NCBI GenBank assembly: GCA_037445535.1
Contig: JBBIKI010000001.1
Coordinates: 46,325 to 110,324 of the forward strand
Reading direction: 5' to 3'
Length of the DNA stretch: 64,000 nt
Source: Acidobacteriota bacterium
GTDB lineage: Bacteria > Acidobacteriota > UBA4820 > DSQY01
Below, one piece after another: positions 42,626 to 59,243 of the stretch. The stretch's first letter is position 1. Every line of letters begins with the position of its first letter. The translations under genes were made by a program, and so were the position numbers. The notes below the pieces were generated by a model. The model was not told where the DNA came from, searched no databases, and saw nothing but the letters and a program-made list of their open reading frames with translations.

Positions 42626-43999
42626 ATGTTGCACGATCCGGAGCCGTACCGCATCAAGATGGTGGAGGCGATCCGCCAGACGTCCAAAGAAGAGCGTTTG
42701 CGCCTCCTCAAACAGGCAGGGTACAACCTCTTTCTGGTTCCCGCGGAGGCCGTTTTCATCGACCTCCTCACCGATTCTGGGACGGGAGCCATGAGCGACC
42801 GCCAGTGGTCCGCTCTCATGCGGGGGGACGAGTCCTACGCCCAGGCCCGCTCGTGGTTTCGCTTCTACGACGTGGTGAAGGGCATCACGGGCATGAGTCA
42901 CGTGCTGCCCACGCACCAAGGGAGGGCGGCCGAGAACATCCTCTTCTCCGAGATCTCCAAGCCGGGCCTCGTGATTCCGAGCAACAGCCACTTCGATACG
43001 ACCCGGGCCAACATCGAATTCTTCGGCGCCGAGGCCGTGGACCTGGTGGTTCCCGAAGGCCATGACCTCCACGCTCGACTTCCCTTCAAGGGAAACATGG
43101 ACCTGGACCGCCTGGAGGCTTTGCTCAAGGCCAAGGGGCGGGAGAAGATCCCCCTCTGCATGCTCACGGTTACCAACAACACGGGAGGCGGGCAGCCCGT
43201 GTCCCTGGAGAACATCCGGGGAGCGTCGGCCCTCTGCCGTGCCCACGGTGTGCCCTTCTTCCTGGACGCCTGCCGGTTTGCGGAGAACGCGTGGTTCATC
43301 CAGCGGCGCGAAGAAGCCTGCAGAGCCATGACCGTGGGAGAGATCGCGCGGGCCATGTTCGCCTGCGCGGACGGGGCCACCATGAGCGCCAAGAAGGACG
43401 GCTTGGGCAACATCGGAGGCTTCCTGGCGCTGAGGGATGACGACTTGGCCGCGCGGCTGAAGAGCGCCCTCATTCTGCGTGAGGGATTTCCCACGTACGG
43501 CGGTCTGGCCGGGCGCGATCTGGAGGCGCTGGCCACGGGCCTGGAAGAGGTCCAGGACGAGGCCTACCTTGCGGCACGCATCGGACAGGTAGAGCGCTTC
43601 GGGGAGGCGCTCAAAGCGGCCGGGATGCCCATCCTCGAACCCACGGGGGGGCACGCGGTGTACCTCGACGCCCGCGGCGCCTTTCCGCACATCGCCCCCG
43701 AGGGTCTCCCGGCCCAGAGCCTCACGGTGGCCCTCTACGCCGAGGGGGGAGTGCGCGGCGTGGAGATCGGGTCCCTCATGTTTGGCCGGACGTTGCCCGA
43801 CGGGACCTTCCAAGGAGCGGACCTGGAGCTGGTCCGGCTCGCCGTGCCCCGCCGGGTCTATACCGACAACCATCTGGGCTACGTGGCCGAAGTGGCGGGG
43901 GAGATCATGCGGCGGAAAGGGAGTTACGGCGGCTACCGCATCGTGGAGGAGCCACCCTTCCTCCGTCACTTTTCCGCGCGGCTGGTTCCCCTGACCTGA
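42626..43999 (+). CDS. tnaA: Tryptophanase / tyrosine phenol-lyase family beta-eliminating lyase
   Basis: 457 aa. N-terminus EPYRIKMVEAIRQTSKEER and the PLP-lysine region SAKKDGLGNIGGFL are highly similar to TnaA/Tpl. Tryptophan versus tyrosine specificity cannot be decided by eye. Confidence 0.8.
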   Translation: MLHDPEPYRIKMVEAIRQTSKEERLRLLKQAGYNLFLVPAEAVFIDLLTDSGTGAMSDRQWSALMRGDESYAQARSWFRFYDVVKGITGMSHVLPTHQGRAAENILFSEISKPGLVIPSNSHFDTTRANIEFFGAEAVDLVVPEGHDLHARLPFKGNMDLDRLEALLKAKGREKIPLCMLTVTNNTGGGQPVSLENIRGASALCRAHGVPFFLDACRFAENAWFIQRREEACRAMTVGEIARAMFACADGATMSAKKDGLGNIGGFLALRDDDLAARLKSALILREGFPTYGGLAGRDLEALATGLEEVQDEAYLAARIGQVERFGEALKAAGMPILEPTGGHAVYLDARGAFPHIAPEGLPAQSLTVALYAEGGVRGVEIGSLMFGRTLPDGTFQGADLELVRLAVPRRVYTDNHLGYVAEVAGEIMRRKGSYGGYRIVEEPPFLRHFSARLVPLT

Positions 44000-44051
44000 A
44001 GCGCCGCCGCTGGCTCGCAGAGGGACAGCGGGCTTGTGCGCGCCCTCCCCC

Positions 44052-44080
44052 TTGAGCCGGAGCCGATTGTTGCTTATGCT
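44052..44080 (+). promoter_or_regulatory. Possible sigma70 promoter (TTGAGC-N17-TATGCT) for the unknown-protein/ThiS-like pair
   Basis: Hexamers at 44052-44057 and 44075-44080, about 27 nt upstream of the ATG at 44107. Confidence 0.3.
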
Positions 44081-44106
44081 GTACGACTGGGGGAAGCGAA
44101 GGGCGC

Positions 44107-44751
44107 ATGATCACGGGATTCAACCAGGACGTCACCTACAAGGGTAAGGTCTACCACGTCCAGACGGAGGACCGGGGCACGAATAACCCGGTCATCGAAA
44201 CCCTCATCTACGCGGGGGGGGAAATCCTGTCCTCCAAGAAGAGCTCGTACGAAGACCTCCTTCAGGAGGGATACGAGGAGCCCAAGCTCATGGCCCGGCT
44301 GGAGCAGCAGCACCGGCGCGTGGTGGTGGACATCAAGTTGGGCAAATACGCCAAGGAGCCGGAGGAGGCTTTCGGCGCAGGCCTCGTATCTTCGAGAAGC
44401 CTGGACGAGGTGATCCTAGACTACCTTACCAGCGAGGCGGAAGGAGAGAAGCTGTCCGTGGCCATCCTTGACCAGCAGCAGCCCGTGGCGGGAGAGCGAG
44501 CCTGGATCAAGCTCAAGGCCGCCACCGACATCAGCAAAACGGCTCTTGCGGGAGCCCACGTTACGGTGAGGCTCACCTCCACCAGCGGACAGACCCAGGA
44601 TCTCTTCGCCGGCCGCACCGACGACCAAGGGCTCTGCTCCGCCGAGTTTCTGGTGCCGGCCGTGGCCGAGAACGCCGTGGTCCTCACGGAGGTGACCCAC
44701 GCCAAGGGTGCGTACCAGCACAAGGCGCTGGTGGCTAAGAAGGCGCCATGA
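44107..44751 (+). CDS. Hypothetical protein (214 aa, no recognisable domain)
   Basis: Clean ORF with an ATG start. Soluble, acidic N-terminal half and Ala/Val-rich C-terminal half. No motif I can assign. Stop overlaps (ATGA) the start of the downstream ThiS-like gene. Confidence 0.5.
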   Translation: MITGFNQDVTYKGKVYHVQTEDRGTNNPVIETLIYAGGEILSSKKSSYEDLLQEGYEEPKLMARLEQQHRRVVVDIKLGKYAKEPEEAFGAGLVSSRSLDEVILDYLTSEAEGEKLSVAILDQQQPVAGERAWIKLKAATDISKTALAGAHVTVRLTSTSGQTQDLFAGRTDDQGLCSAEFLVPAVAENAVVLTEVTHAKGAYQHKALVAKKAP

Positions 44752-44951
44752 TGACGGTGCGCCTCAACGGCCAGGACAGGGAATGCCCCGAGGGGATGAC
44801 CATGGGCGAGCTGCTCCAATCCCTCGGTCTTTCCGCGGTGCGCGTGGCTGTGGAACGCAACGGGGCCATCGTTTCTCGGGAGCGGTTCTCGGACACCGTT
44901 CTTGCCGGGGGCGACCGGCTGGAGGTCGTCCAGTTCGTGGGCGGAGGATGA
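44748..44951 (+). CDS. thiS: ThiS/MoaD-family sulfur-carrier (ubiquitin-like beta-grasp) protein ending in Gly-Gly
   Basis: 67 aa. MTVRLNGQDRECPEGMTMGELLQSL...DRLEVVQFVGGG is collinear with E. coli ThiS (MQILFNDQ...ILLFQVIAGG). Translationally coupled to the upstream unknown ORF. Confidence 0.7.
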   Translation: MMTVRLNGQDRECPEGMTMGELLQSLGLSAVRVAVERNGAIVSRERFSDTVLAGGDRLEVVQFVGGG

Positions 44952-45054
44952 AAGGGTAGATCGGACAAGCAAGTGAACGGGGGCGGGGGGGATAAGAGCG
45001 CAAGGCTTTGGTGATGGGCGCGTGTTTCGGCCTGCGGGCCGCCGTGTGTGCAGA

Positions 45055-45129
45055 TGGTGGGCGGTGAGGGATTCGAACCCCCGACATCCTGCGTGTAAGG
45101 CAGGCGCTCTTCCGCTGAGCTAACCGCCC
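45055..45129 (-). tRNA. tRNA-Val (anticodon UAC)
   Basis: The reverse complement GGGCGGTTAGCTCAGCGGAAGAGCGCCTGCCTTACACGCAGGATGTCGGGGGTTCGAATCCCTCACCGCCCACCA folds as a cloverleaf: 7-bp acceptor stem, D-arm, anticodon loop CTTACAC, TPsiC loop TTCGAAT, 3' CCA. Confidence 0.85.
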
Positions 45130-45219
45130 GGAAGCCCGCGCAGTGTAACGGATGGATGGAGCGAAGGTCAAACGGAGGGGGTTTTCTCGCCAAAAGGCCA
45201 AGACTTTTTCTACAAAGCC

Positions 45220-45248
45220 TTGACCGGATAGGAGAAATCTGATAATGT
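45220..45248 (+). promoter_or_regulatory. Predicted sigma70 promoter of the atp sub-operon (TTGACC-N17-TAATGT)
   Basis: -35 TTGACC at 45220-45225 and -10 TAATGT at 45243-45248, about 45 nt upstream of the atpF' GTG. Confidence 0.45.
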
Positions 45249-45293
45249 CTATCATCTTCCTTAGGAACGGGGTTCCGTTCGGGAGATCTGACC

Positions 45294-45737
45294 GTGCTTG
45301 AAGAGATCGTCAAAAACCTGTGGCATATCCCTATCCTGATGGCCATGATCCTGGTCTACGGATTCCTGCTCAACCGCGTCCTTTTCCGGCCCGTCCTGCG
45401 GGTTCTTGACGACCGGAAAGGCAGGATCCGCGAGGCCGGCGCCCTCTCGGAGCAGTCCCGCGAGTCTCTCAAGCAGCGGTTCGCCGATTACGAGCAGGCC
45501 GTGCTGGAGGCCCACCGCAAGGGCACGCACATCAAGGAAGAGGCGCGCGGCAAAGCGTACGCGTACCGCTCCCAGGTGCTGGGTGCCATGAAAGCCGAGA
45601 TGGACGCGGAGATTCGCAAAACTGAGTCGGAGCTCAAGGCGAGCACGGAAACCATCAAGAAAGAATTGGACGCCACGACGCCCGACCTCGTAAAGATCAT
45701 GACCTCCAAGATCCTCGGCCGCGAGGTGGCCCCGTGA
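45294..45737 (+). CDS. atpF2: F0F1 ATP synthase subunit b' (second b-type subunit)
   Basis: Single N-terminal TM helix IPILMAMILVYGFLLNRVLF followed by a long charged coiled coil. First gene of the atp cluster. Confidence 0.7.
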   Translation: MLEEIVKNLWHIPILMAMILVYGFLLNRVLFRPVLRVLDDRKGRIREAGALSEQSRESLKQRFADYEQAVLEAHRKGTHIKEEARGKAYAYRSQVLGAMKAEMDAEIRKTESELKASTETIKKELDATTPDLVKIMTSKILGREVAP

Positions 45738-51689: not shown

Positions 51690-51916
51690 GGCGCATGGTG
51701 CTGTGGCTGATTAAGGCGTACCAGTGGACCCTAAGCCCGCTTCTGGGCAACGCGTGCAGGTTCTACCCTTCCTGCTCGCATTACACGTACGAGGCGGTGG
51801 ATCGGTATGGGTTGATGCGCGGGTGCTGGATGGGCTTCAAGCGCCTGCTCAGGTGCAATCCCTGGTTCGAAGGCGGATACGACCCGGTCCCCAAGGCGGG
51901 TGGCGAAGGGAGTTGA
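51686..51916 (+). CDS. yidD: Membrane protein insertion efficiency factor YidD
   Basis: [35 protein letters not shown], with conserved Cys residues. GTG at 51686 overlaps the rnpA stop. The long upstream part of ORF 51575 was rejected. Confidence 0.8.
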
Positions 51917-51918
51917 GG

Positions 51919-53706
51919 ATGGAACAGCTGGGACAAGAAGATCCGCAGAGCTTCAAGCGCCTCATCTGGGCCATGATCCTCATGGCCGTCGTATTCGGCG
52001 GCAGTACCTACTTCATGCGAAGCAAGGCTCCGCCCGCCGAGCCGGCCCAAGGCGGGAAGGCGGCTAAAAGTGCATCAGTTCAGGGCGCGGCAGGGACGCA
52101 GGCGGGGGTCCAAGCGCCGCTGGCTGCGCTGGCGGCTCCGGAGGCGAATCCGGCTCCTGTGCAGGGGGAGAAGGAGGAGACCTTCACCCTGGAGAATGAT
52201 GACCTTCGCTTGGTATTTGGAAACAAGGGCGGCATCTTGCGGAGCGCGGTCCTGAAGAAGTACAGGGCTAAGGGCGGGCCCAACGACGACCTGGTGTCGC
52301 CCCTGTCGGCCATGACGGGAGCCTACCCGCTGGCCGTCAGGACAGGGGATGCACCCTTCGACAAGGCCGTATCGGAGGCGTTGTTCCACGTGGAACAATA
52401 CGCCGGTCCGCAGGGAGCGAGAGGGCTTCGGATGAGCTGGGCGGACGGCAAGGGCAACGCCGTAACCAAGACCGTCACGCTGCCCGCCTCAGGCTATGAG
52501 CTAGGCCTGCAGGTTTCGGCGCTGAAAGGGGGGCGATCGCTTGAGGGCGTTCCCCTTACCTGGGGCTCAGGTCTGGGGACCCTGACGGAAGCGGAGGCCA
52601 AGAACAAGTATTTCCAGCAGGAGTTCCTCGCGGTGGTGACGCCGGAGGGGTACAAAAAAGTTGAGCGGGACCGCAAGGTCGGGACCGGAAAGCCTGAGTC
52701 GGCCACGGCCTTCGCCGGCGGCGACACGTGGGCGGGGCTGAGCACGGGGTATTTCGCGGCTATCTTCATTCCTAAACAGCCCCTTATGGGTGTTACGTTT
52801 GAGACCTTCGCGCTCACCACCGAGGAGCGAAAGGTTCACCCCTCCGATTCGTCTGTCACCCTCGTCGTTGGCTTCCCCGGCGAGGGCAAGCTCTTCATCG
52901 GCCCGAAGGAATACAAGCGCTTGCGGGACATGGGTGATTCCTTCTACAGGATTCTGGATTGGGGCTCCTATGGATTCTCGAACGCCATCCTCAACCCCAT
53001 CTGCGCAGCCCTTCTGTGGGGCCTCAAGGGCTTGCACGGCCTGGTGGGAAACTACGGGGTGGCCATTCTGCTCCTGACGCTCATCATCAAGCTTGCCTTC
53101 TACCCGCTGACCCAGCGGTCCATGGTCAAGATGAAAGAGATGGGTGAGGGGATGAAGAAACTCAAGCCCCAGCTCGATCGCATCAAGGCCAAGTATAAAA
53201 AGCTGCCCAAAGACATGGCCAACCGGGCCAAGCTGAACGAAGAAATGATGGGTCTCTACCAGCGGGAGGGCATCAATCCCCTCGGGGGTATGAGCGGCTG
53301 CCTGCCTCTTCTGCTGCAGATGCCCATCTTTTTCGCCCTATTCACGCTGCTGCCCAAAACCCTGGAGCTGAGGGGAGCGCCCTTTTTCGGCTGGATCCAC
53401 GACCTCTCGATGCAGGATCCCTACTACGTAACGCCGATCCTCATGGGCCTGTCCATGTTCGCGTCCACGAGGATGACCAGCTCCACGGGCATGGAGGGGA
53501 GCCAGAAGATGCTCCTCTATTTCATGCCGGTCATGTTCACGTGGATCTGCCTGTGGGCCCCTGCCGGCTTGACCCTCTACTGGCTTGCCAACAACGTCCT
53601 GACCATGGGCCAGCAGGCCATCATCAACCATCAGGTCCAGGCCAGGCAGGAGGCCGCGGCCAAAGGCAGGAAGTCAACGCCCAAGGGGCCGTCCCGGCCA
53701 TCCTGA
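51919..53706 (+). CDS. yidC: Membrane protein insertase YidC
   Basis: N-terminal TM, large periplasmic domain and a C-terminal 5-TM core (LKPQLDRIKAKYK, PLLLQMPIFFALF). 595 aa from the ATG at 51919. Confidence 0.9.
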   Translation: MEQLGQEDPQSFKRLIWAMILMAVVFGGSTYFMRSKAPPAEPAQGGKAAKSASVQGAAGTQAGVQAPLAALAAPEANPAPVQGEKEETFTLENDDLRLVFGNKGGILRSAVLKKYRAKGGPNDDLVSPLSAMTGAYPLAVRTGDAPFDKAVSEALFHVEQYAGPQGARGLRMSWADGKGNAVTKTVTLPASGYELGLQVSALKGGRSLEGVPLTWGSGLGTLTEAEAKNKYFQQEFLAVVTPEGYKKVERDRKVGTGKPESATAFAGGDTWAGLSTGYFAAIFIPKQPLMGVTFETFALTTEERKVHPSDSSVTLVVGFPGEGKLFIGPKEYKRLRDMGDSFYRILDWGSYGFSNAILNPICAALLWGLKGLHGLVGNYGVAILLLTLIIKLAFYPLTQRSMVKMKEMGEGMKKLKPQLDRIKAKYKKLPKDMANRAKLNEEMMGLYQREGINPLGGMSGCLPLLLQMPIFFALFTLLPKTLELRGAPFFGWIHDLSMQDPYYVTPILMGLSMFASTRMTSSTGMEGSQKMLLYFMPVMFTWICLWAPAGLTLYWLANNVLTMGQQAIINHQVQARQEAAAKGRKSTPKGPSRPS

Positions 53707-55055
53707 TGAAGGACCTGTCGGGCACGATCGCCGCCGAGGCCACCCCTCCGGGACGGGGGAGCGTCCGCATCGTGAGGCTGAGCGGGCCCGAGGCCGTACC
53801 TCTCTTGCAATCGCTGTTCGTACCGCAGGGGCCGCTCCCGTGGGAGCGGCCCCGGTGTTTGTGCCTGGGCGGCGTGCGTGCTCGGGGCCAGGGGGTCCTC
53901 GATCGGGCACTGGCGGTATGTTTCCTGGGTCCCGATTCTCTCACCGGCGAGGATGTAGTGGAGCTCCAGGTCCATGGCGCGCCGGGGGTGGTGCGGGGCA
54001 TCCTCGATCTTCTGGGTGCTGCCGGAGCCCGAATGGCGCTGCCTGGGGAGTTCTCGTACAGAGCCTTCCTCAACGGCAAGCTCTCGGTCATGGAAGCAGA
54101 GGCCGTCAACGCCCTGGTGGATGCGGAAACGGAAGGGCAGGCGGCGGGGCTGGCGGGAGGCTTGCACGGGGGAATCGAGGGGGAGCTCAGGGCCTTGCTG
54201 GAAGAGGTTCTGGACCTGCGAGCCGGCTGGGAGGCGGGCATAGATTTCCCCGAAGACGTGGGCGACATAGGCCTGCCGGATTCACTGGAGCGCCTTCGGT
54301 CCGTGGTGGGCCGGATGGAGGGGCTTCTGCGGACCGCTCCGGCCCTGCGCTACCTTAGGGAGGGTTGGCGCCTCGCGTTGGTGGGGCCGGTGAACTCGGG
54401 CAAGTCATCCCTCTTCAACGCGCTCCTCAAGAGAGAGCGCGCCTTGGTGACCCCTCATCCGGGAACCACCCGCGATGTTCTTGAGGAATCAGTACAAATT
54501 GGGGGATACCCGCTGATCCTCATGGATACGGCGGGAGTACGCACGACCAGCGACCCGGTGGAGAGCTTGGGGGTCGAGCGGGGGCTGAAAGCGGCGAGCG
54601 TGGCCGATGGCGCCGTGTTGGTGTTCGACGGCCGAAAGGGCTGGGGCGACGAGGAGGAGAGTCTCCTGGGGCGTTTGAACGGGGCTCCCGTAGCCATTGT
54701 GGCCAACAAAGCCGACCTAGGCTTCCAGGCAGGTCACATGCCAGACAGGACGATGTCCCTCAGTGCCGCGACCGGGGCGGGCCTTCAGAGCCTCTCTACG
54801 TATCTCGGGGCCTGGATGGAGGCGGCGGCCCCCAAGGGGCGGGAAGTCCTGTCGTCGGATCGCCAAGTGGAAACCCTCCGGGGAGCCCTTGCCGGATGCC
54901 TCTCGGCTCTCAGGACCGCCGAGGAGGGCGGCGGGGAGGACTTGGCCTGCGAAGGGCTCATGGAAGCACAGCGAGCGCTGGAGTCATGCGTCACGGGCGG
55001 ATCGATGGAAGATCTCTACGACCGGATTTTCTCCCGGTTTTGTATAGGCAAGTGA
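53706..55055 (+). CDS. mnmE: tRNA modification GTPase MnmE (TrmE)
   Basis: G-domain GPVNSGKSS, DTAG and NKAD, and the C-terminal CIGK. ATG overlaps the yidC stop. Confidence 0.9.
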   Translation: MKDLSGTIAAEATPPGRGSVRIVRLSGPEAVPLLQSLFVPQGPLPWERPRCLCLGGVRARGQGVLDRALAVCFLGPDSLTGEDVVELQVHGAPGVVRGILDLLGAAGARMALPGEFSYRAFLNGKLSVMEAEAVNALVDAETEGQAAGLAGGLHGGIEGELRALLEEVLDLRAGWEAGIDFPEDVGDIGLPDSLERLRSVVGRMEGLLRTAPALRYLREGWRLALVGPVNSGKSSLFNALLKRERALVTPHPGTTRDVLEESVQIGGYPLILMDTAGVRTTSDPVESLGVERGLKAASVADGAVLVFDGRKGWGDEEESLLGRLNGAPVAIVANKADLGFQAGHMPDRTMSLSAATGAGLQSLSTYLGAWMEAAAPKGREVLSSDRQVETLRGALAGCLSALRTAEEGGGEDLACEGLMEAQRALESCVTGGSMEDLYDRIFSRFCIGK

Positions 55056-55070
55056 GTGGAGCGGCCACCC

Positions 55071-56933
55071 ATGTCGGTCCGAGGGTCCGGAGATAGGAAC
55101 GTCGAAGCTACATGCGACGCCGTCGTCGTGGGCGCGGGCCACGCGGGCTGCGAGGCGGCTCGGATCATGGCACGAAAGGGACTGGAGACAGTCCTCGTAA
55201 CCGAATCCCTCTCGGCTATCGCAAGGCAGTCATGCAACCCCTCCATCGGGGGCGTCGGCAAGGGTCACATGGTTCGGGAACTGGACGCCCTGGGCGGCCT
55301 CATGGCTAGGGCCGCGGACGCCACGGGGATTCACTTTCGCCTGCTCAACGCCAGCAAAGGCCCGGCGGTTCAAGGGCTGAGGTGCCAGACGGACCGCCTG
55401 GCTTACCATGGAGTGGTGCGTAGGATCCTCGAAGGAACCCCGGGGCTGCGCCTCGTAGAGGGGCGGGCGGTGGGGCTCCTGCTGAACGGCGGCAACGCCG
55501 CAGGCGTGGAGATCGAGGATGGCCGGCGGGTGATGGCCCGGGCCGTGATCATCACCGCGGGGACCTTCCTGGACGGTCTCATGCACGTGGGTCCGGAGCA
55601 GACACCAGGAGGGCGCATGGGGGAGTTCGCGGCCGTAGGCCTGGCGAGAAGCCTGCGAGACCTCGGGCTTCCCGTGGCCAGGTTTAAGACGGGCACGCCG
55701 CCGCGGCTCGACCGGAGCACCATCGCCTGGGACCAGCTCAAACCTCAGCCCGGCGACCCCGATCCCGAGCCCTTCTCCTTGCTGAGCAAGCCCTTCCCCC
55801 TTCTGCCCCAGCAGCTCTGCTACCTCACCCGCACCACTTCGGAGACGAGGAGGATCATCGAGAGGAACCTTCACAGGTCCCCCCTCTTCGCCGGAGCCAT
55901 CCAGGGGAGGGGACCGCGCTACTGCCCGTCCATCGAAGACAAGATGGTGCGGTTCCCCCACAACGAAACCCATCACATCTTTCTAGAGCCCGATGGGGCC
56001 CGCTCGGAAGAGATCTACCCCAACGGCATTTCTACCTCGCTGCCCAAGGACGTGCAGGATAAGGTGGTTCACAGCATTCCTGGGCTGGAGGAGGCGCGGA
56101 TCTTGAAGTACGGCTACGCCGTGGAATATGACTATGTGGACCCCCGGGCCCTGCGCGAAACGCTGGAATGCAAGGCCTTGCCCGGACTCTACCTGGCGGG
56201 CCAAGTGAACGGCACTACGGGCTACGAGGAGGCGGCCGCCTTGGGACTCTGGGCCGGGCTCAACGCGGCGAGGGCCCTGAGGGGCGAGGAGCCTTTCCTG
56301 CCGGGGAGGGAGGAGACCTACCTCGCCGTCCTCGTGGACGACCTGGTGACTCGCGGCGTCACCGAACCCTACCGGATGTTTACGTCCCGCGCCGAATACC
56401 GCCTCCTTCTGGACCGGCACAGCGCCTATCGGCGGCTCGCGCACCTCGTGGAGAAGGATGGCCTCCATCCGGAGGACGATCGAGCGGACCTCGCCCAACG
56501 GGCCACGCGGTTCTCCGATCTCATGGGGGTTCTGTCAGCGACCTGGGTGGAAGAGGATGGCCAGCGCTTTCCCTTGGCCCAAATCTTGAGCCGTCCTCGG
56601 GTGACTCTGGCGGACATCAAAGGCGACTTGGCCGGCCTGGTATGGGACCGCTGGGTTGGCCTGGACGTTGAAGCGGAGGTGAAGACGCAGGGCTACCGGG
56701 ATCGGGAGCGTGCCTCGGTGAGGAGAACGAGGGAGGCACGCGGGAGGAGAATCCCGGAGGGCTTCCAATACGGTGGACTGCCCAATCTCAGCGGCGAGAT
56801 GGTGGAGCGGCTGGCGGCGGTGCGCCCCGAGACACTGGACCAGGCTTCGCGGATTCCGGGGGTAACCCCCGTGGCTCTGACGGTGATCCGCATCGCATTG
56901 GAGCAGGGGAGGAGGGTCCATGGCGGTCCCTAG
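55071..56933 (+). CDS. mnmG: tRNA uridine 5-carboxymethylaminomethyl modification enzyme MnmG (GidA)
   Basis: FAD motif [15 protein letters not shown] and GidA-family conservation throughout. About 620 aa. Confidence 0.9.
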
Positions 56934-57495
56934 CGTGGAGGACTTTCTCGCCCTCCTTTTCAAATGGAATCAGACCTACAGGCTCACGGCCTTCAAGGGC
57001 CCTGAAGAAGCCATGGCGCTGGGTGTAAAGCCCTCCCTGGCGATCCTGGACCAACTGCCCCAGGGTGCCCGCCTCCTCGACGTGGGCTCAGGCGGCGGGT
57101 TTCCGGCCATTCCCCTGGCCCTGGTGCGACCCGATCTACACGTGACGTGCACCGAACCGAGCCGCCAGAAAACTGCTTTTTTAAGAGAAGCGGCCGCCTC
57201 TTTCGGCCTGCAGGTTCAGGTGGAGAACCTCCCCGTCGAGGTGGTCCTGCGCCAGGGAGAGACGCGCCGATGGGACGTCATCACGGTGCGGGGCGTGCAC
57301 CTGCGCCACGGCCTTCTCAGGCGCCTGTCCAAGGCCCTCGCCCCTGGCGGAGTGCTGGCCGTGTGGAGCGGCGGGGAGCGGGAGCAAAGCTACGCCAAGT
57401 GGGCCTCCGAGGCCGGACTGGTGGTGGAGGAACGCCTCCTGCCAACGGTGCCGCCGGTGCCCCTCCTCCTGGCACGTGTTCCACGTGGAACATAA
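56920..57495 (+). CDS. rsmG: 16S rRNA (guanine527-N7)-methyltransferase RsmG (GidB)
   Basis: SAM motif [17 protein letters not shown]. 191 aa. Overlaps the mnmG end. Confidence 0.85.
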
Positions 57496-57640
57496 GGCGC
57501 GAAGGGCCGCCAAACGGGACGCAATTGGCCCTCGTGAGCGTTCGTTCAAAGGCCCGCCTCCCATCCCGTTGATGGCTCCCGGCCCTATCCTCCCCCATGG
57601 CTCCCATGGTACATTGGCCACCTGTCTTGGAGGGAAATCC

Positions 57641-58405
57641 GTGGGTCTAATCGTCGCTGTTGCCAACCAGAAGGGCGGGGTTGGGAAGACCACCACCGTC
57701 ATCAACCTCGGTGCGTGCCTCGCCGCCGCCGAGAAGAAGGTCCTCCTGGTGGATTTTGATCCCCAGGCCAACTGCACGTCCGGCATGGGCATCTCTAAAT
57801 CGCGGGACGGCCTCAATGCCTATGCGGTCTTGAGCGGGGCCGCTCTGGTGGAGGAAGCAGTGGCCGCCTCGGACCTGCCCCACCTCTCCATCCTTCCCGG
57901 ATCCATTTCCCTGGCCGGGGCCGAAGTGGAGTTGACGGGGATGGAGGAACGGGAATTCGTATTGAAGAAGGCCCTGGCTCCGGTCAAGGACCGATACGAC
58001 TATATTTTAATTGACTGTCCTCCATCATTGGGCCTGCTCACGCTCAACGCCTTGGTGGCGGCCGACGAGGTGCTCATCCCCATCCAGGCGGAATACTACG
58101 CCATGGAGGGGGTCAGCGAGCTGCTCAGAACCCTGGAGCGGGTCCGGGAATCGCTGAACCCGGACTTGGCGGTTCGAGGCGTCCTCCTCACCATGGTGGA
58201 CCAGAAGACCAACCTGGGACGGCAGGTCTCCTCGGAGGTCCAGAGGTTTTTCGGCGACAAGGTCTATCACGGCGTCATACCCCGGAACATCCGGCTGGCG
58301 GAGGCCCCGTCCTTCGGCAAGCCCATCATTCTCTACGACATCGCCTCACGAGGTGCGCAGAGCTATCTTCAAATCGCGCAGGAGTTTATGGCCAATGAAT
58401 GCTAA
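57641..58405 (+). CDS. parA: Chromosome partitioning ATPase ParA (Soj)
   Basis: Deviant Walker A VANQKGGVGKTTT. GTG at 57641 preceded by GGAGGGA. The upstream part of ORF 57476 was rejected. Confidence 0.85.
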   Translation: MGLIVAVANQKGGVGKTTTVINLGACLAAAEKKVLLVDFDPQANCTSGMGISKSRDGLNAYAVLSGAALVEEAVAASDLPHLSILPGSISLAGAEVELTGMEEREFVLKKALAPVKDRYDYILIDCPPSLGLLTLNALVAADEVLIPIQAEYYAMEGVSELLRTLERVRESLNPDLAVRGVLLTMVDQKTNLGRQVSSEVQRFFGDKVYHGVIPRNIRLAEAPSFGKPIILYDIASRGAQSYLQIAQEFMANEC

Positions 58406-59243
58406 AAACGCCCTCGGCCGAGGCCTCGACGCCCTCCTCAACGCCCCCGGGTCCGAGCCCCGCCGCGTTCTCGAGGTGGAGGTCCACCGCCTCCAGCCCA
58501 ATCCCAGCCAGCCTCGGGCCCGGTTCGAGACAGAGGCCCTCGAGGACCTCGCCCGCTCCATCCAGGCCAATGGGGTCCTCCAGCCCATTCTCGTGCGGCC
58601 CAGCAACGGCAAATACGAGATCATCGCGGGTGAACGTAGGTGGCGCGCGGCGCAGCGCGCGGGCCTCCAGCGGGTGCCCGTCATCGTCCGGGAGACGGCG
58701 GACGCCCAAATGCTGGAGCTGGCTCTTGTTGAAAACCTCCAGCGCGAGGATTTGAACCCCGTTGAGCAGGCCCGTGCCTATCAGGTACTCGTGGAGGACC
58801 TGGACCTGAGCCAGGAGGAGGTCGCGCGGAAGGTCGGCAAGGAGCGGGCCACCGTGGCCAACACCCTGCGCCTTCTCCATCTGCCCAAGATGGCCCTGGA
58901 CGCCTTGGAGGCGGGCCAGATCACCACGGGCCATGCCAAGGCCATCCTGTCCCAGAAACGGCGGGAAGAGCAGGAAGCGCTCCTGGAGGAGGTTCTCAAG
59001 CGGGGGCTTTCGGTTAGGGAGGCGGAGGCCTTTCACCGGCGCGTGCAAGGCAAGGCCAGGGGCAAGCGCGCCATGGACCCGGACACGGCGGCGGCGGCCC
59101 AGCGCCTTTCCATGGAGCTGGGCATGCCCGTGGAGATCAGGCGGCGCGGGCGGGGCGGTGAGGTTTCACTACGGTTTCGAGACGAGCAGGAGCTGCACCG
59201 GCTCTTCGAATGGCTTCAGGGCCAGCGGGGGAAATCGCGATGA
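58395..59243 (+). CDS. parB: Chromosome partitioning protein ParB (Spo0J)
   Basis: ParB box GERRWRAA, and the HTH region. ATG at 58395 overlaps the parA end. Confidence 0.9.
   Translation: MNAKNALGRGLDALLNAPGSEPRRVLEVEVHRLQPNPSQPRARFETEALEDLARSIQANGVLQPILVRPSNGKYEIIAGERRWRAAQRAGLQRVPVIVRETADAQMLELALVENLQREDLNPVEQARAYQVLVEDLDLSQEEVARKVGKERATVANTLRLLHLPKMALDALEAGQITTGHAKAILSQKRREEQEALLEEVLKRGLSVREAEAFHRRVQGKARGKRAMDPDTAAAAQRLSMELGMPVEIRRRGRGGEVSLRFRDEQELHRLFEWLQGQRGKSR

Follow-up and report, generated by a model that had tools for sequence, protein, structure and literature searches.

A conserved gene pair in Acidobacteriota that couples a RomY-family protein to the sulfur carrier ThiS

What does it mean when the gene of a small sulfur-carrier protein overlaps that of a larger protein from another family, and do the two products act on each other or are they inherited side by side? 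This question is raised by a gene pair in a 64,000-nucleotide stretch of DNA, here called the window, from an Acidobacteriota bacterium (assembly GCA_037445535.1, contig JBBIKI010000001.1, positions 46,325 to 110,324 of the forward strand). According to the list of open reading frames (ORFs), the first gene of this bicistronic unit (44107..44751, + strand) encodes a protein of 214 amino acids (aa), and the second, thiS (44748..44951, + strand), encodes a 67-aa sulfur-carrier protein that ends in VQFVGGG before the stop codon. A first-pass annotation of the window treated the 67-aa protein as an orphan carrier, described the 214-aa protein as one without recognisable motifs and of unknown family, and proposed that the latter was the dedicated partner or substrate-forming enzyme of the former, or its conjugation target.

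Both genes are of known kinds, and the locus reveals no new sulfur-carrier system. The explanation that fits best, and which is held here with moderate confidence, is that two independent functions, namely those of a homologue of a polarity co-GTPase-activating protein (co-GAP) and of a thiamin sulfur carrier, are united in one inherited operon. Thus, of the candidate new two-gene module in the annotation, the real and conserved gene pair stands, while the new biochemical system does not. A search of the accessible literature found no mention of a romY–thiS(–thiG) operon, and its conservation in Acidobacteriota is apparently unreported so far.

Two genes of known kinds

The terminal Gly-Gly of the 67-aa protein and the overlap of its gene with the 214-aa ORF, both noted in the first-pass annotation, are confirmed in the sequence. 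The ATG of thiS (44748-44750) overlaps the TGA stop codon of the upstream gene (44749-44751) within an ATGA (44748..44751, + strand), in a junction that reads GCGCCATGATGACG (GCGCC-ATGA-TGACG), and an additional in-frame ATG lies at 44751, downstream of the first one. Moreover, a purine run AAGAAGG (44737..44743, + strand), located within the upstream gene and 4 nt before the thiS ATG, resembles a Shine–Dalgarno element and may function as one. The GC content at third codon positions reaches 0.84 in the 214-aa ORF and 0.81 in the 67-aa ORF, as compared with 0.65 overall in the surrounding 17 kb, and in both cases it matches that of neighbouring real genes. A scan for promoters and terminators between positions 43700 and 45400 gave nothing informative, and the folding of the spacer between thiS and the downstream tRNA was likewise uninformative (z = 0.67).

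The 214-aa protein does carry a recognisable domain. Its residues 1-82 match positions 1-82 of the 83 positions in the NCBIfam model NF053858 (RomY_Nterm) with an E-value of 1.8e-30 and 105.2 bits, against a cutoff of 50, and distant homologues of the protein score 103-118 bits on the same model. Searches against Pfam yielded nothing significant; a weak match to bMG3 in the C-terminal module (E 0.14, far below the cutoff) agrees with a predicted beta-sandwich and does not denote family membership. In total, 613 homologues were found at E<=1e-3, and the named ones come from Acidobacteriota. By its sequence, the 214-aa protein is a RomY-family protein in an acidobacterial form.

The founding member of this family, RomY of Myxococcus xanthus (MXAN_5749), is a cytoplasmic protein of 188 residues that acts at the lagging cell pole, where it serves the MglA/MglB polarity module as a co-GAP. 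Both MglA-GTP and the MglB dimer bind to the conserved N-terminal part of RomY (residues 8-89), and residues 1-89 hold most of the activity that stimulates the GAP MglB (PMC9481161). The window protein resembles M. xanthus RomY in its N-terminal domain of about 83 residues, matched over the full length of the model, in the extreme N-terminal position of this domain, in the flexible linker that follows and in being a small cytoplasmic protein. The two proteins differ in their C-terminal parts: that of M. xanthus RomY is predicted with low confidence and includes a short motif that is partly conserved, whereas that of the window protein comprises a helix and a seven-stranded macroglobulin (MG)/immunoglobulin (Ig)-like sandwich, both predicted well.

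The architecture of the window protein was predicted with AlphaFold2 from 75-78 homologues. The RomY N-terminal domain (aa 1-82; 44107..44352, + strand) is formed by four beta-strands followed by two helices, and it is compact, with a predicted local distance difference test score (pLDDT) of 92 and, on its own, a predicted template modelling score (pTM) of 0.82. Its invariant residues are T3, G4, N6, D8, H17-V-Q-T-E-D22, G24, E31, L33, Y35, G38, Y48, Q68, H69 and G79. A predicted disordered linker (aa 85-95; 44359..44391, + strand; pLDDT <50) comes next; its length varies in the alignment of homologues, some of which bear Pro/Ala-rich insertions of about 100 aa. The C-terminal module (44401..44730, + strand) consists of a helix (aa 99-112) with a conserved LDxVIxxYL motif and of the seven-stranded beta-sandwich (aa 116-208; pLDDT about 95). 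In a Foldseek search of the PDB, the predicted sandwich matches MG and Ig-like domains, e.g., 2p9r, with TM-target values of 0.59-0.64. The sandwich may mediate localisation or the binding of a partner. Acidobacterial RomY homologues have a distinct architecture, in which the RomY N-terminal domain is joined to an MG/Ig-like beta-sandwich.

The 67-aa protein can be assigned with similar clarity. It scores 75.8 bits on the thiS equivalog model TIGR01683, about twice the cutoff of 37.45, and this model is its best and sole NCBIfam match; on PF02597 it scores 61.2 bits against a cutoff of 22.5. A phmmer search of the PDB gave nearly full-length alignments to 1tyg_B (E 3.8e-7), 2k5p_A and 1f0z_A, all of them solved ThiS structures. 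Moreover, the protein is 52% identical to a ThiS (P0134) encoded by the first gene of a thiS–thiF–thiG–thiH–thiE operon. It shares with the ThiS proteins of Escherichia coli (1f0z/1zud) and Bacillus subtilis (ThiS–ThiG complex, 1tyg) the length of 67 aa, the pattern NG...VAVERNG...GD.LE(I/V)V.FVGGG and the C-terminal Gly-Gly. The window gene differs from thiS of the thiamin pathway in its setting, since it stands apart from thiG and thiF, has no nearby thiamin pyrophosphate (TPP) riboswitch and is co-translated with a homologue of a polarity regulator.

An alignment of 25 ThiS sequences, comprising that of the window, 23 from other romY-linked loci and one reference from a canonical operon, reveals a common pattern formed by an N-terminal NG, VA(V/I)ExN and GD.(L/I)E(I/V)V.FV(G/Q)GG. 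The terminal (G/Q)GG is conserved throughout, with a short tail behind it in two romY-linked sequences, and no feature in this alignment distinguishes romY-linked ThiS from ThiS of the canonical operon. By sequence, the 67-aa protein is canonical ThiS; the same romY–thiS pair runs directly into thiG in related Acidobacteriota, so that it is most probably the ThiS of thiamin synthesis. As an observation in its own right, three romY-linked thiS ORFs run past the Gly-Gly codons (L035:5549-5875, …VQGGSPRLR; L058:6786-6998, …VQGGCKE; L090:7872-8078, …VGGGQS). If these extensions are real, such carriers would need trimming before their activation.

These assignments bear directly on the proposal of the first-pass annotation, namely that the pair would constitute an uncharacterised thiocarboxylate-dependent step or a ubiquitin-like modification module. 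The proposal draws on the terminal Gly-Gly, on the tight coupling and on the lack of thi, moa, E1-type (activating enzyme) and JAMM genes found in the 64-kb window. This last claim held for the large ORFs scanned with Pfam and for the tblastn searches. The Pfam scan covered 43 ORFs, i.e., about 40 large ORFs (>=150 aa) chosen as likely genes, the pair and its upstream neighbour, while several of the longest ORFs, including the atp genes, and all ORFs <150 aa except the pair lay outside it. No ThiG, ThiF/MoeB, ThiH/ThiO, ThiE, MoaE, JAMM, MglA or MglB was detected among the 43 scanned ORFs, and a tblastn search of the window with ThiF, ThiG, ThiH and ThiE from the canonical operon gave no match. 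A nearly invariant lysine of the predicted sandwich, K206, could also be imagined as an acceptor of the carrier, which is pure speculation.

However, the 214-aa protein is a member of a regulatory family that has been characterised and whose founder is unrelated to sulfur transfer, precisely the kind of assignment that the annotation had named as speaking against its reading. Moreover, the carrier is a canonical ThiS and is located beside thiG in relatives, and neither a JAMM gene nor an E1 of its own accompanies the pair consistently; no JAMM gene was seen in the related loci that were annotated. There is no evidence for either the thiocarboxylate-dependent step or the conjugation, and both the RomY family and the linkage to thiG speak against them. 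The RomY_Nterm match and the thiG linkage thus largely refute this reading, which now appears very improbable. A complete conjugation module composed of a ubiquitin-like protein, an E1 and a JAMM protease was considered separately and rejected, as neither ThiF/MoeB nor JAMM occurs among the scanned window ORFs.

The other carriers of PF02597, such as MoaD, CysO, SAMP and TtuB, have in common with the 67-aa protein the beta-grasp family and a terminal Gly-Gly on which E1-like enzymes act for activation. They differ from it in context, since no moaE, cysM, JAMM or dedicated E1 gene was found in the window and orthologous loci contain thiG. Identity as MoaD was rejected, with the thiS equivalog as the sole NCBIfam match and no MoaE among the scanned window ORFs. 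In one related locus (L083), moaA is a divergent neighbour of the romY–thiS pair and lies outside the unit. A molybdenum cofactor (Moco) riboswitch (RF01055, 48 bits; L083:7694-7794, - strand) precedes this moaA and belongs to it, not to the pair.

The romY–thiS adjacency across Acidobacteriota

Conservation of the gene neighbourhood across genomes, a check proposed in the first-pass annotation, was addressed by a homologue scan with one genome per species. The scan returned more than 591 loci, of which the best 80 were kept. The label is Acidobacteriota for nearly all of these and Deltaproteobacteria for two, while two loci lack a phylum name. Genes were called by third-position GC, a procedure that mis-called some opposite-strand ORFs (e.g., atpF of the window and thiG of L012), and key neighbours were confirmed by tblastn or Pfam. 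The presence of thiS beside each romY homologue was established by tblastn and a jackhmmer ThiS search in the 75 loci that could be evaluated downstream.

In 28 of these 75 loci, thiS adjoins the romY homologue, and the flanking contexts in which it does so are of at least five unrelated kinds. The corresponding RomY-like proteins are 33-96% identical, and the adjacency also occurs in metagenomic contigs. The 4-nt overlap between start and stop codons recurs in about 20 of the thiS-positive loci, whereas most others have a gap of 3-30 nt and the largest gap measures about 60 nt. The pair is thus a conserved and translationally coupled two-gene unit, the one part of the annotation's idea that holds, and not a gene with a neighbour that varies randomly between genomes. 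A chance juxtaposition in this genome, devoid of evolutionary depth, would be compatible with the unrelated known functions of the two families; nevertheless, it is refuted by these comparative data, in which the flanks are entirely different, and it can be regarded as scarcely credible.

A neighbour-joining tree of the RomY-like proteins, together with gene maps, defines the following groups. Group A, the clade of the window, has the order uvrA, lyase, romY, thiS, followed by either the atp operon or mutS, and thiS is adjacent in nearly all of its loci. Group B (Polarisedimenticolia and 'gp22') is mixed: its loci show romY, thiS, thiG and smpB on the opposite strand, and in sister genomes romY directly precedes smpB. 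In group C, moaA (on the opposite strand) or fatty-acid genes are followed by romY, thiS, tRNAs, tig, clpP, clpX and lon, with thiS adjacent in all loci. In group D (Thermoanaerobaculia), genes for a thioesterase and a transglutaminase-like protein precede romY, a phosphodiesterase–tetratricopeptide repeat gene follows, and thiS lies in between in some genomes only. In group E (Holophagaceae, Geothrix), romY follows a RomR-like gene and thiS is never adjacent. The 4-nt overlap is distributed over groups A to D. Moreover, in Pyrinomonadaceae (Blastocatellia), which came to light when a divergent representative of 187 aa served as the query for homologues, the order is nuo (opposite strand), romY-like, thiS, thiG and recQ (opposite strand), and thiS is adjacent in both loci examined.

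The thiG gene directly follows thiS in six loci (L012, L013, L015, L018, L027 and L051), with 48-52% identity to a reference ThiG, and in the two Pyrinomonadaceae loci (L090 and L091), where it was recognised by PF05690. The claim that the carrier lies outside the usual thiamin context therefore does not hold, as thiG comes directly after the pair in Polarisedimenticolia, 'gp22' and Pyrinomonadaceae and the ThiS sequence is canonical. An 'orphan' thiS can thus be the remnant of a thiS–thiG arrangement rather than a novel carrier, a lesson that applies to annotation. In addition, a gene for a MoeZ-type E1 (ThiF with a C-terminal rhodanese domain) occurs 3-4 kb from the romY homologue in eight loci of clade D (L056, L067, L070, L073, L074, L075, L078 and L079; e.g., L073:3819-4946). 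This MoeZ/MoeB-type E1 is present regardless of whether thiS stands beside romY.

The remaining 47 of the 75 evaluable loci have no adjacent thiS, and romY is intact in them. Comparisons such as L067 vs L073 and L016/L017/L019 vs L018 show this within otherwise identical synteny: thiS is cleanly absent from the same slot, and romY is intact. In the Holophagaceae-type loci (29/29), a gap of 10-60 nt separates the romY homologue from the end of an upstream RomR-like gene. The product of this gene (about 420 aa; e.g., L086:6693-7958) combines a receiver domain with an acidic/Pro-rich linker and with an AWEVMPDLA motif that is conserved at the C-terminus (REIAWEVMPDLA), and the assignment of the gene follows the architecture and the description in the literature (PMC3441718) rather than a curated model. 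It was found in L021, L024, L025, L030-L034, L036-L038, L041-L046, L053, L055, L057, L059, L060, L063, L064, L066, L071, L072, L076, L077 and L086. The romR–romY and romY–thiS adjacencies never occur together in the sampled loci.

Independent functions or a functional partnership

How the two functions may have come to share an operon can be outlined as follows. The upstream gene encodes an acidobacterial form of RomY. Its N-terminal domain shares homology with the M. xanthus domain that binds MglA-GTP/MglB and raises the GAP activity, and the predicted Ig/macroglobulin-like sandwich takes the position of the poorly structured tail of the Myxococcus protein. The C-terminal Gly-Gly of ThiS would be adenylated by a ThiF/MoeZ-type E1 and converted to a thiocarboxylate, which ThiG would use to form the thiazole of thiamin; both the E1 and ThiG are presumably encoded elsewhere in this genome. 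The ATGA overlap implies that thiS is translated by the ribosomes that complete the romY-family gene. The window pair is probably the relic of an ancestral acidobacterial romY–thiS–thiG operon, an arrangement still intact in Pyrinomonadaceae, Polarisedimenticolia and 'gp22', and from which thiG would have moved away or been lost in the lineage of the window.

Under this explanation, the RomY-like protein and ThiS would not act on each other, and their linkage would reflect operon inheritance or co-expression instead of a shared reaction. Independent functions are favoured because romY remains intact in loci that cleanly lack thiS at the same position, because Holophagaceae link romY to a RomR-like gene instead, because Myxococcus RomY needs only MglA and MglB, and because ThiS works without RomY in most bacteria. 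The long persistence of the pair can also be explained, because a tiny gene that relies on the promoter and ribosomes of its upstream neighbour is hard to detach.

Nevertheless, several observations weigh against independence. Across several acidobacterial classes and in no fewer than five unrelated contexts, the two genes have stayed adjacent, mostly with a 4-nt overlap or a gap <30 nt, and such persistence together with translational coupling is more typical of proteins that act together. In one group C locus (L035), the order of the genes is reversed (thiS–romY) and the two are still neighbours. Moreover, the invariant polar residues H17, Q19, T20, E21, D22, Q68 and H69 of the N-terminal domain would also suit a catalytic or ligand-binding site. 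In the window and in the 6-10 kb around each thiS-linked romY homologue, no mglA, mglB, romR or romX was seen, and it is therefore homology that suggests a polarity role in the lineage of the window. A tblastn search with an MglA query against the window and every locus gave no match, which is a weak negative. Control by a TPP riboswitch was rejected: at Rfam gathering thresholds only the tRNA appears in the window, nothing relevant is found at E<=10 in 43900-45350, and Rfam detects no TPP element in 12 related loci. This finding neither supports nor excludes thiamin control.

Binding of MglA-GTP and MglB and stimulation of the GAP are properties known for M. xanthus RomY only (PMC9481161), and a polarity function of the RomY-family protein in this organism is suggested by homology. 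RomR, and with it the polarity module, has been reported in Acidobacteria (PMC3441718). As compared with M. xanthus RomY, the window gene is coupled to thiS, with no mglA, mglB, romR or romX visible in the window, whereas the Holophagaceae homologues adjoin a RomR-like gene. The paper on M. xanthus RomY reports no motility-related neighbours of romY and does not mention thiS (PMC9481161).

The alternative that has to be weighed most seriously is a functional partnership between the RomY-family protein and ThiS, in which ThiG may or may not take part. ThiS could join the MglA/MglB/RomY switch, the RomY N-terminal domain could sense the state of the ThiS thiocarboxylate or of thiamin and tie motility or polarity to it, or the RomY-domain protein could be an accessory factor of thiazole synthesis. 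The deep conservation of the adjacency, the conserved overlap with the coupled translation that it implies, the adjacency maintained in L035 despite its inverted order and the strongly invariant polar residues of the N-terminal domain all argue for such a partnership. Furthermore, the N-terminal domain family is very large, with 3335 clusters at 50% identity (E<=1e-3; 2453 at E<=1e-10) and many different C-termini, so that it may serve in more ways than the one known from Myxococcus.

However, the activity of RomY in vitro requires only MglA and MglB (PMC9481161), romY is intact in the 47 loci lacking an adjacent thiS, including those with identical synteny, and in Holophagaceae it is paired with a RomR-like gene. 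A plain thiamin role of ThiS also suffices, because the linked ThiS proteins show no distinguishing feature and thiG travels with ThiS. In addition, a literature search found no published link between RomY and ThiS. A partnership in this broad sense is thus unlikely, if still worth considering. Its most far-reaching versions appear less likely again, i.e., those in which ThiS is a component or modifier of the MglA/MglB/RomY GTPase switch, or in which the RomY N-terminal domain reads the thiocarboxylate or thiamin state and couples polarity or motility to cofactor or sulfur status. The ubiquitin-like beta-grasp fold of ThiS resembles that of eukaryotic Ras-binding domains. Should a partnership be real, the conserved and translationally coupled romY–thiS(–thiG) operon would be its genomic trace.

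Of note is the persistence of this operon and of its coupling across several acidobacterial classes while the surroundings were reshuffled. Such persistence may represent the long-lived hitch-hiking of a tiny gene, or it may hint that a small-GTPase polarity regulator is linked, in a way not recognised before, to the metabolism of thiazole or sulfur carriers.

Variant RomY architectures and the surroundings of the pair

The size and variety of the RomY N-terminal domain family far exceed what the single protein studied would suggest. In the listed matches, the domain occupies a position at or near the N-terminus, and the part that follows varies between a Pro-rich linker, a beta-sandwich and a transmembrane segment with TonB_C. 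Proteins of the last type (P0249, P0275 and L092:6001-7434; 457-477 aa) combine the N-terminal domain with a long acidic linker, a transmembrane segment and TonB_C, and their genes adjoin a Ser/Thr kinase gene. Anchoring in the membrane would not be expected of a co-GAP domain that is cytoplasmic.

Another variant was observed in two independent Pyrinomonadaceae assemblies (L090:7001-7860 and L091:7001-7865), in which the N-terminal domain and the beta-sandwich were called as two ORFs that overlap and differ in frame (129+157 aa and 144+165 aa, respectively). A related protein (P0229, 422 aa) contains both parts in a single chain. The split may be genuine, or it may reflect a frameshift error that recurs.

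In the window, the gene upstream of the pair (42626..43999, + strand) encodes a beta-eliminating lyase of the tryptophanase/tyrosine phenol-lyase (TPL) family (PF01212, E 4.7e-74; NF009709, 639.8 bits). This lyase scores strongly on the subfamily model NF009709, yet it falls under the equivalog cutoffs of both TnaA and TPL. The order uvrA–lyase–romY is kept in L001-L011, L016, L040, L062, L081 and L087, which include the clade of the window and a few loci of other clades. On the other side, a tRNA-Val(TAC) gene (45055..45129, - strand), identified by ARAGORN and by Rfam RF00005 (72 bits), is convergent with thiS and marks the end of the unit. Domain and tRNA searches thus verify both flanks given in the first-pass annotation. 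Beyond the tRNA lies the atp operon, whose genes were assigned by synteny with L087.

Overall, the window contains pyrB, pyrC, radA, uvrA, the lyase gene, the pair, the atp genes, yidC, mnmE, mnmG, rsmG, parA and parB in this order, a set of housekeeping character. The genes yidC, mnmE, mnmG, rsmG, parA and parB are located at 51724-59243, after the atp operon, and this set of genes indicates that the window probably lies close to the chromosomal origin of replication.

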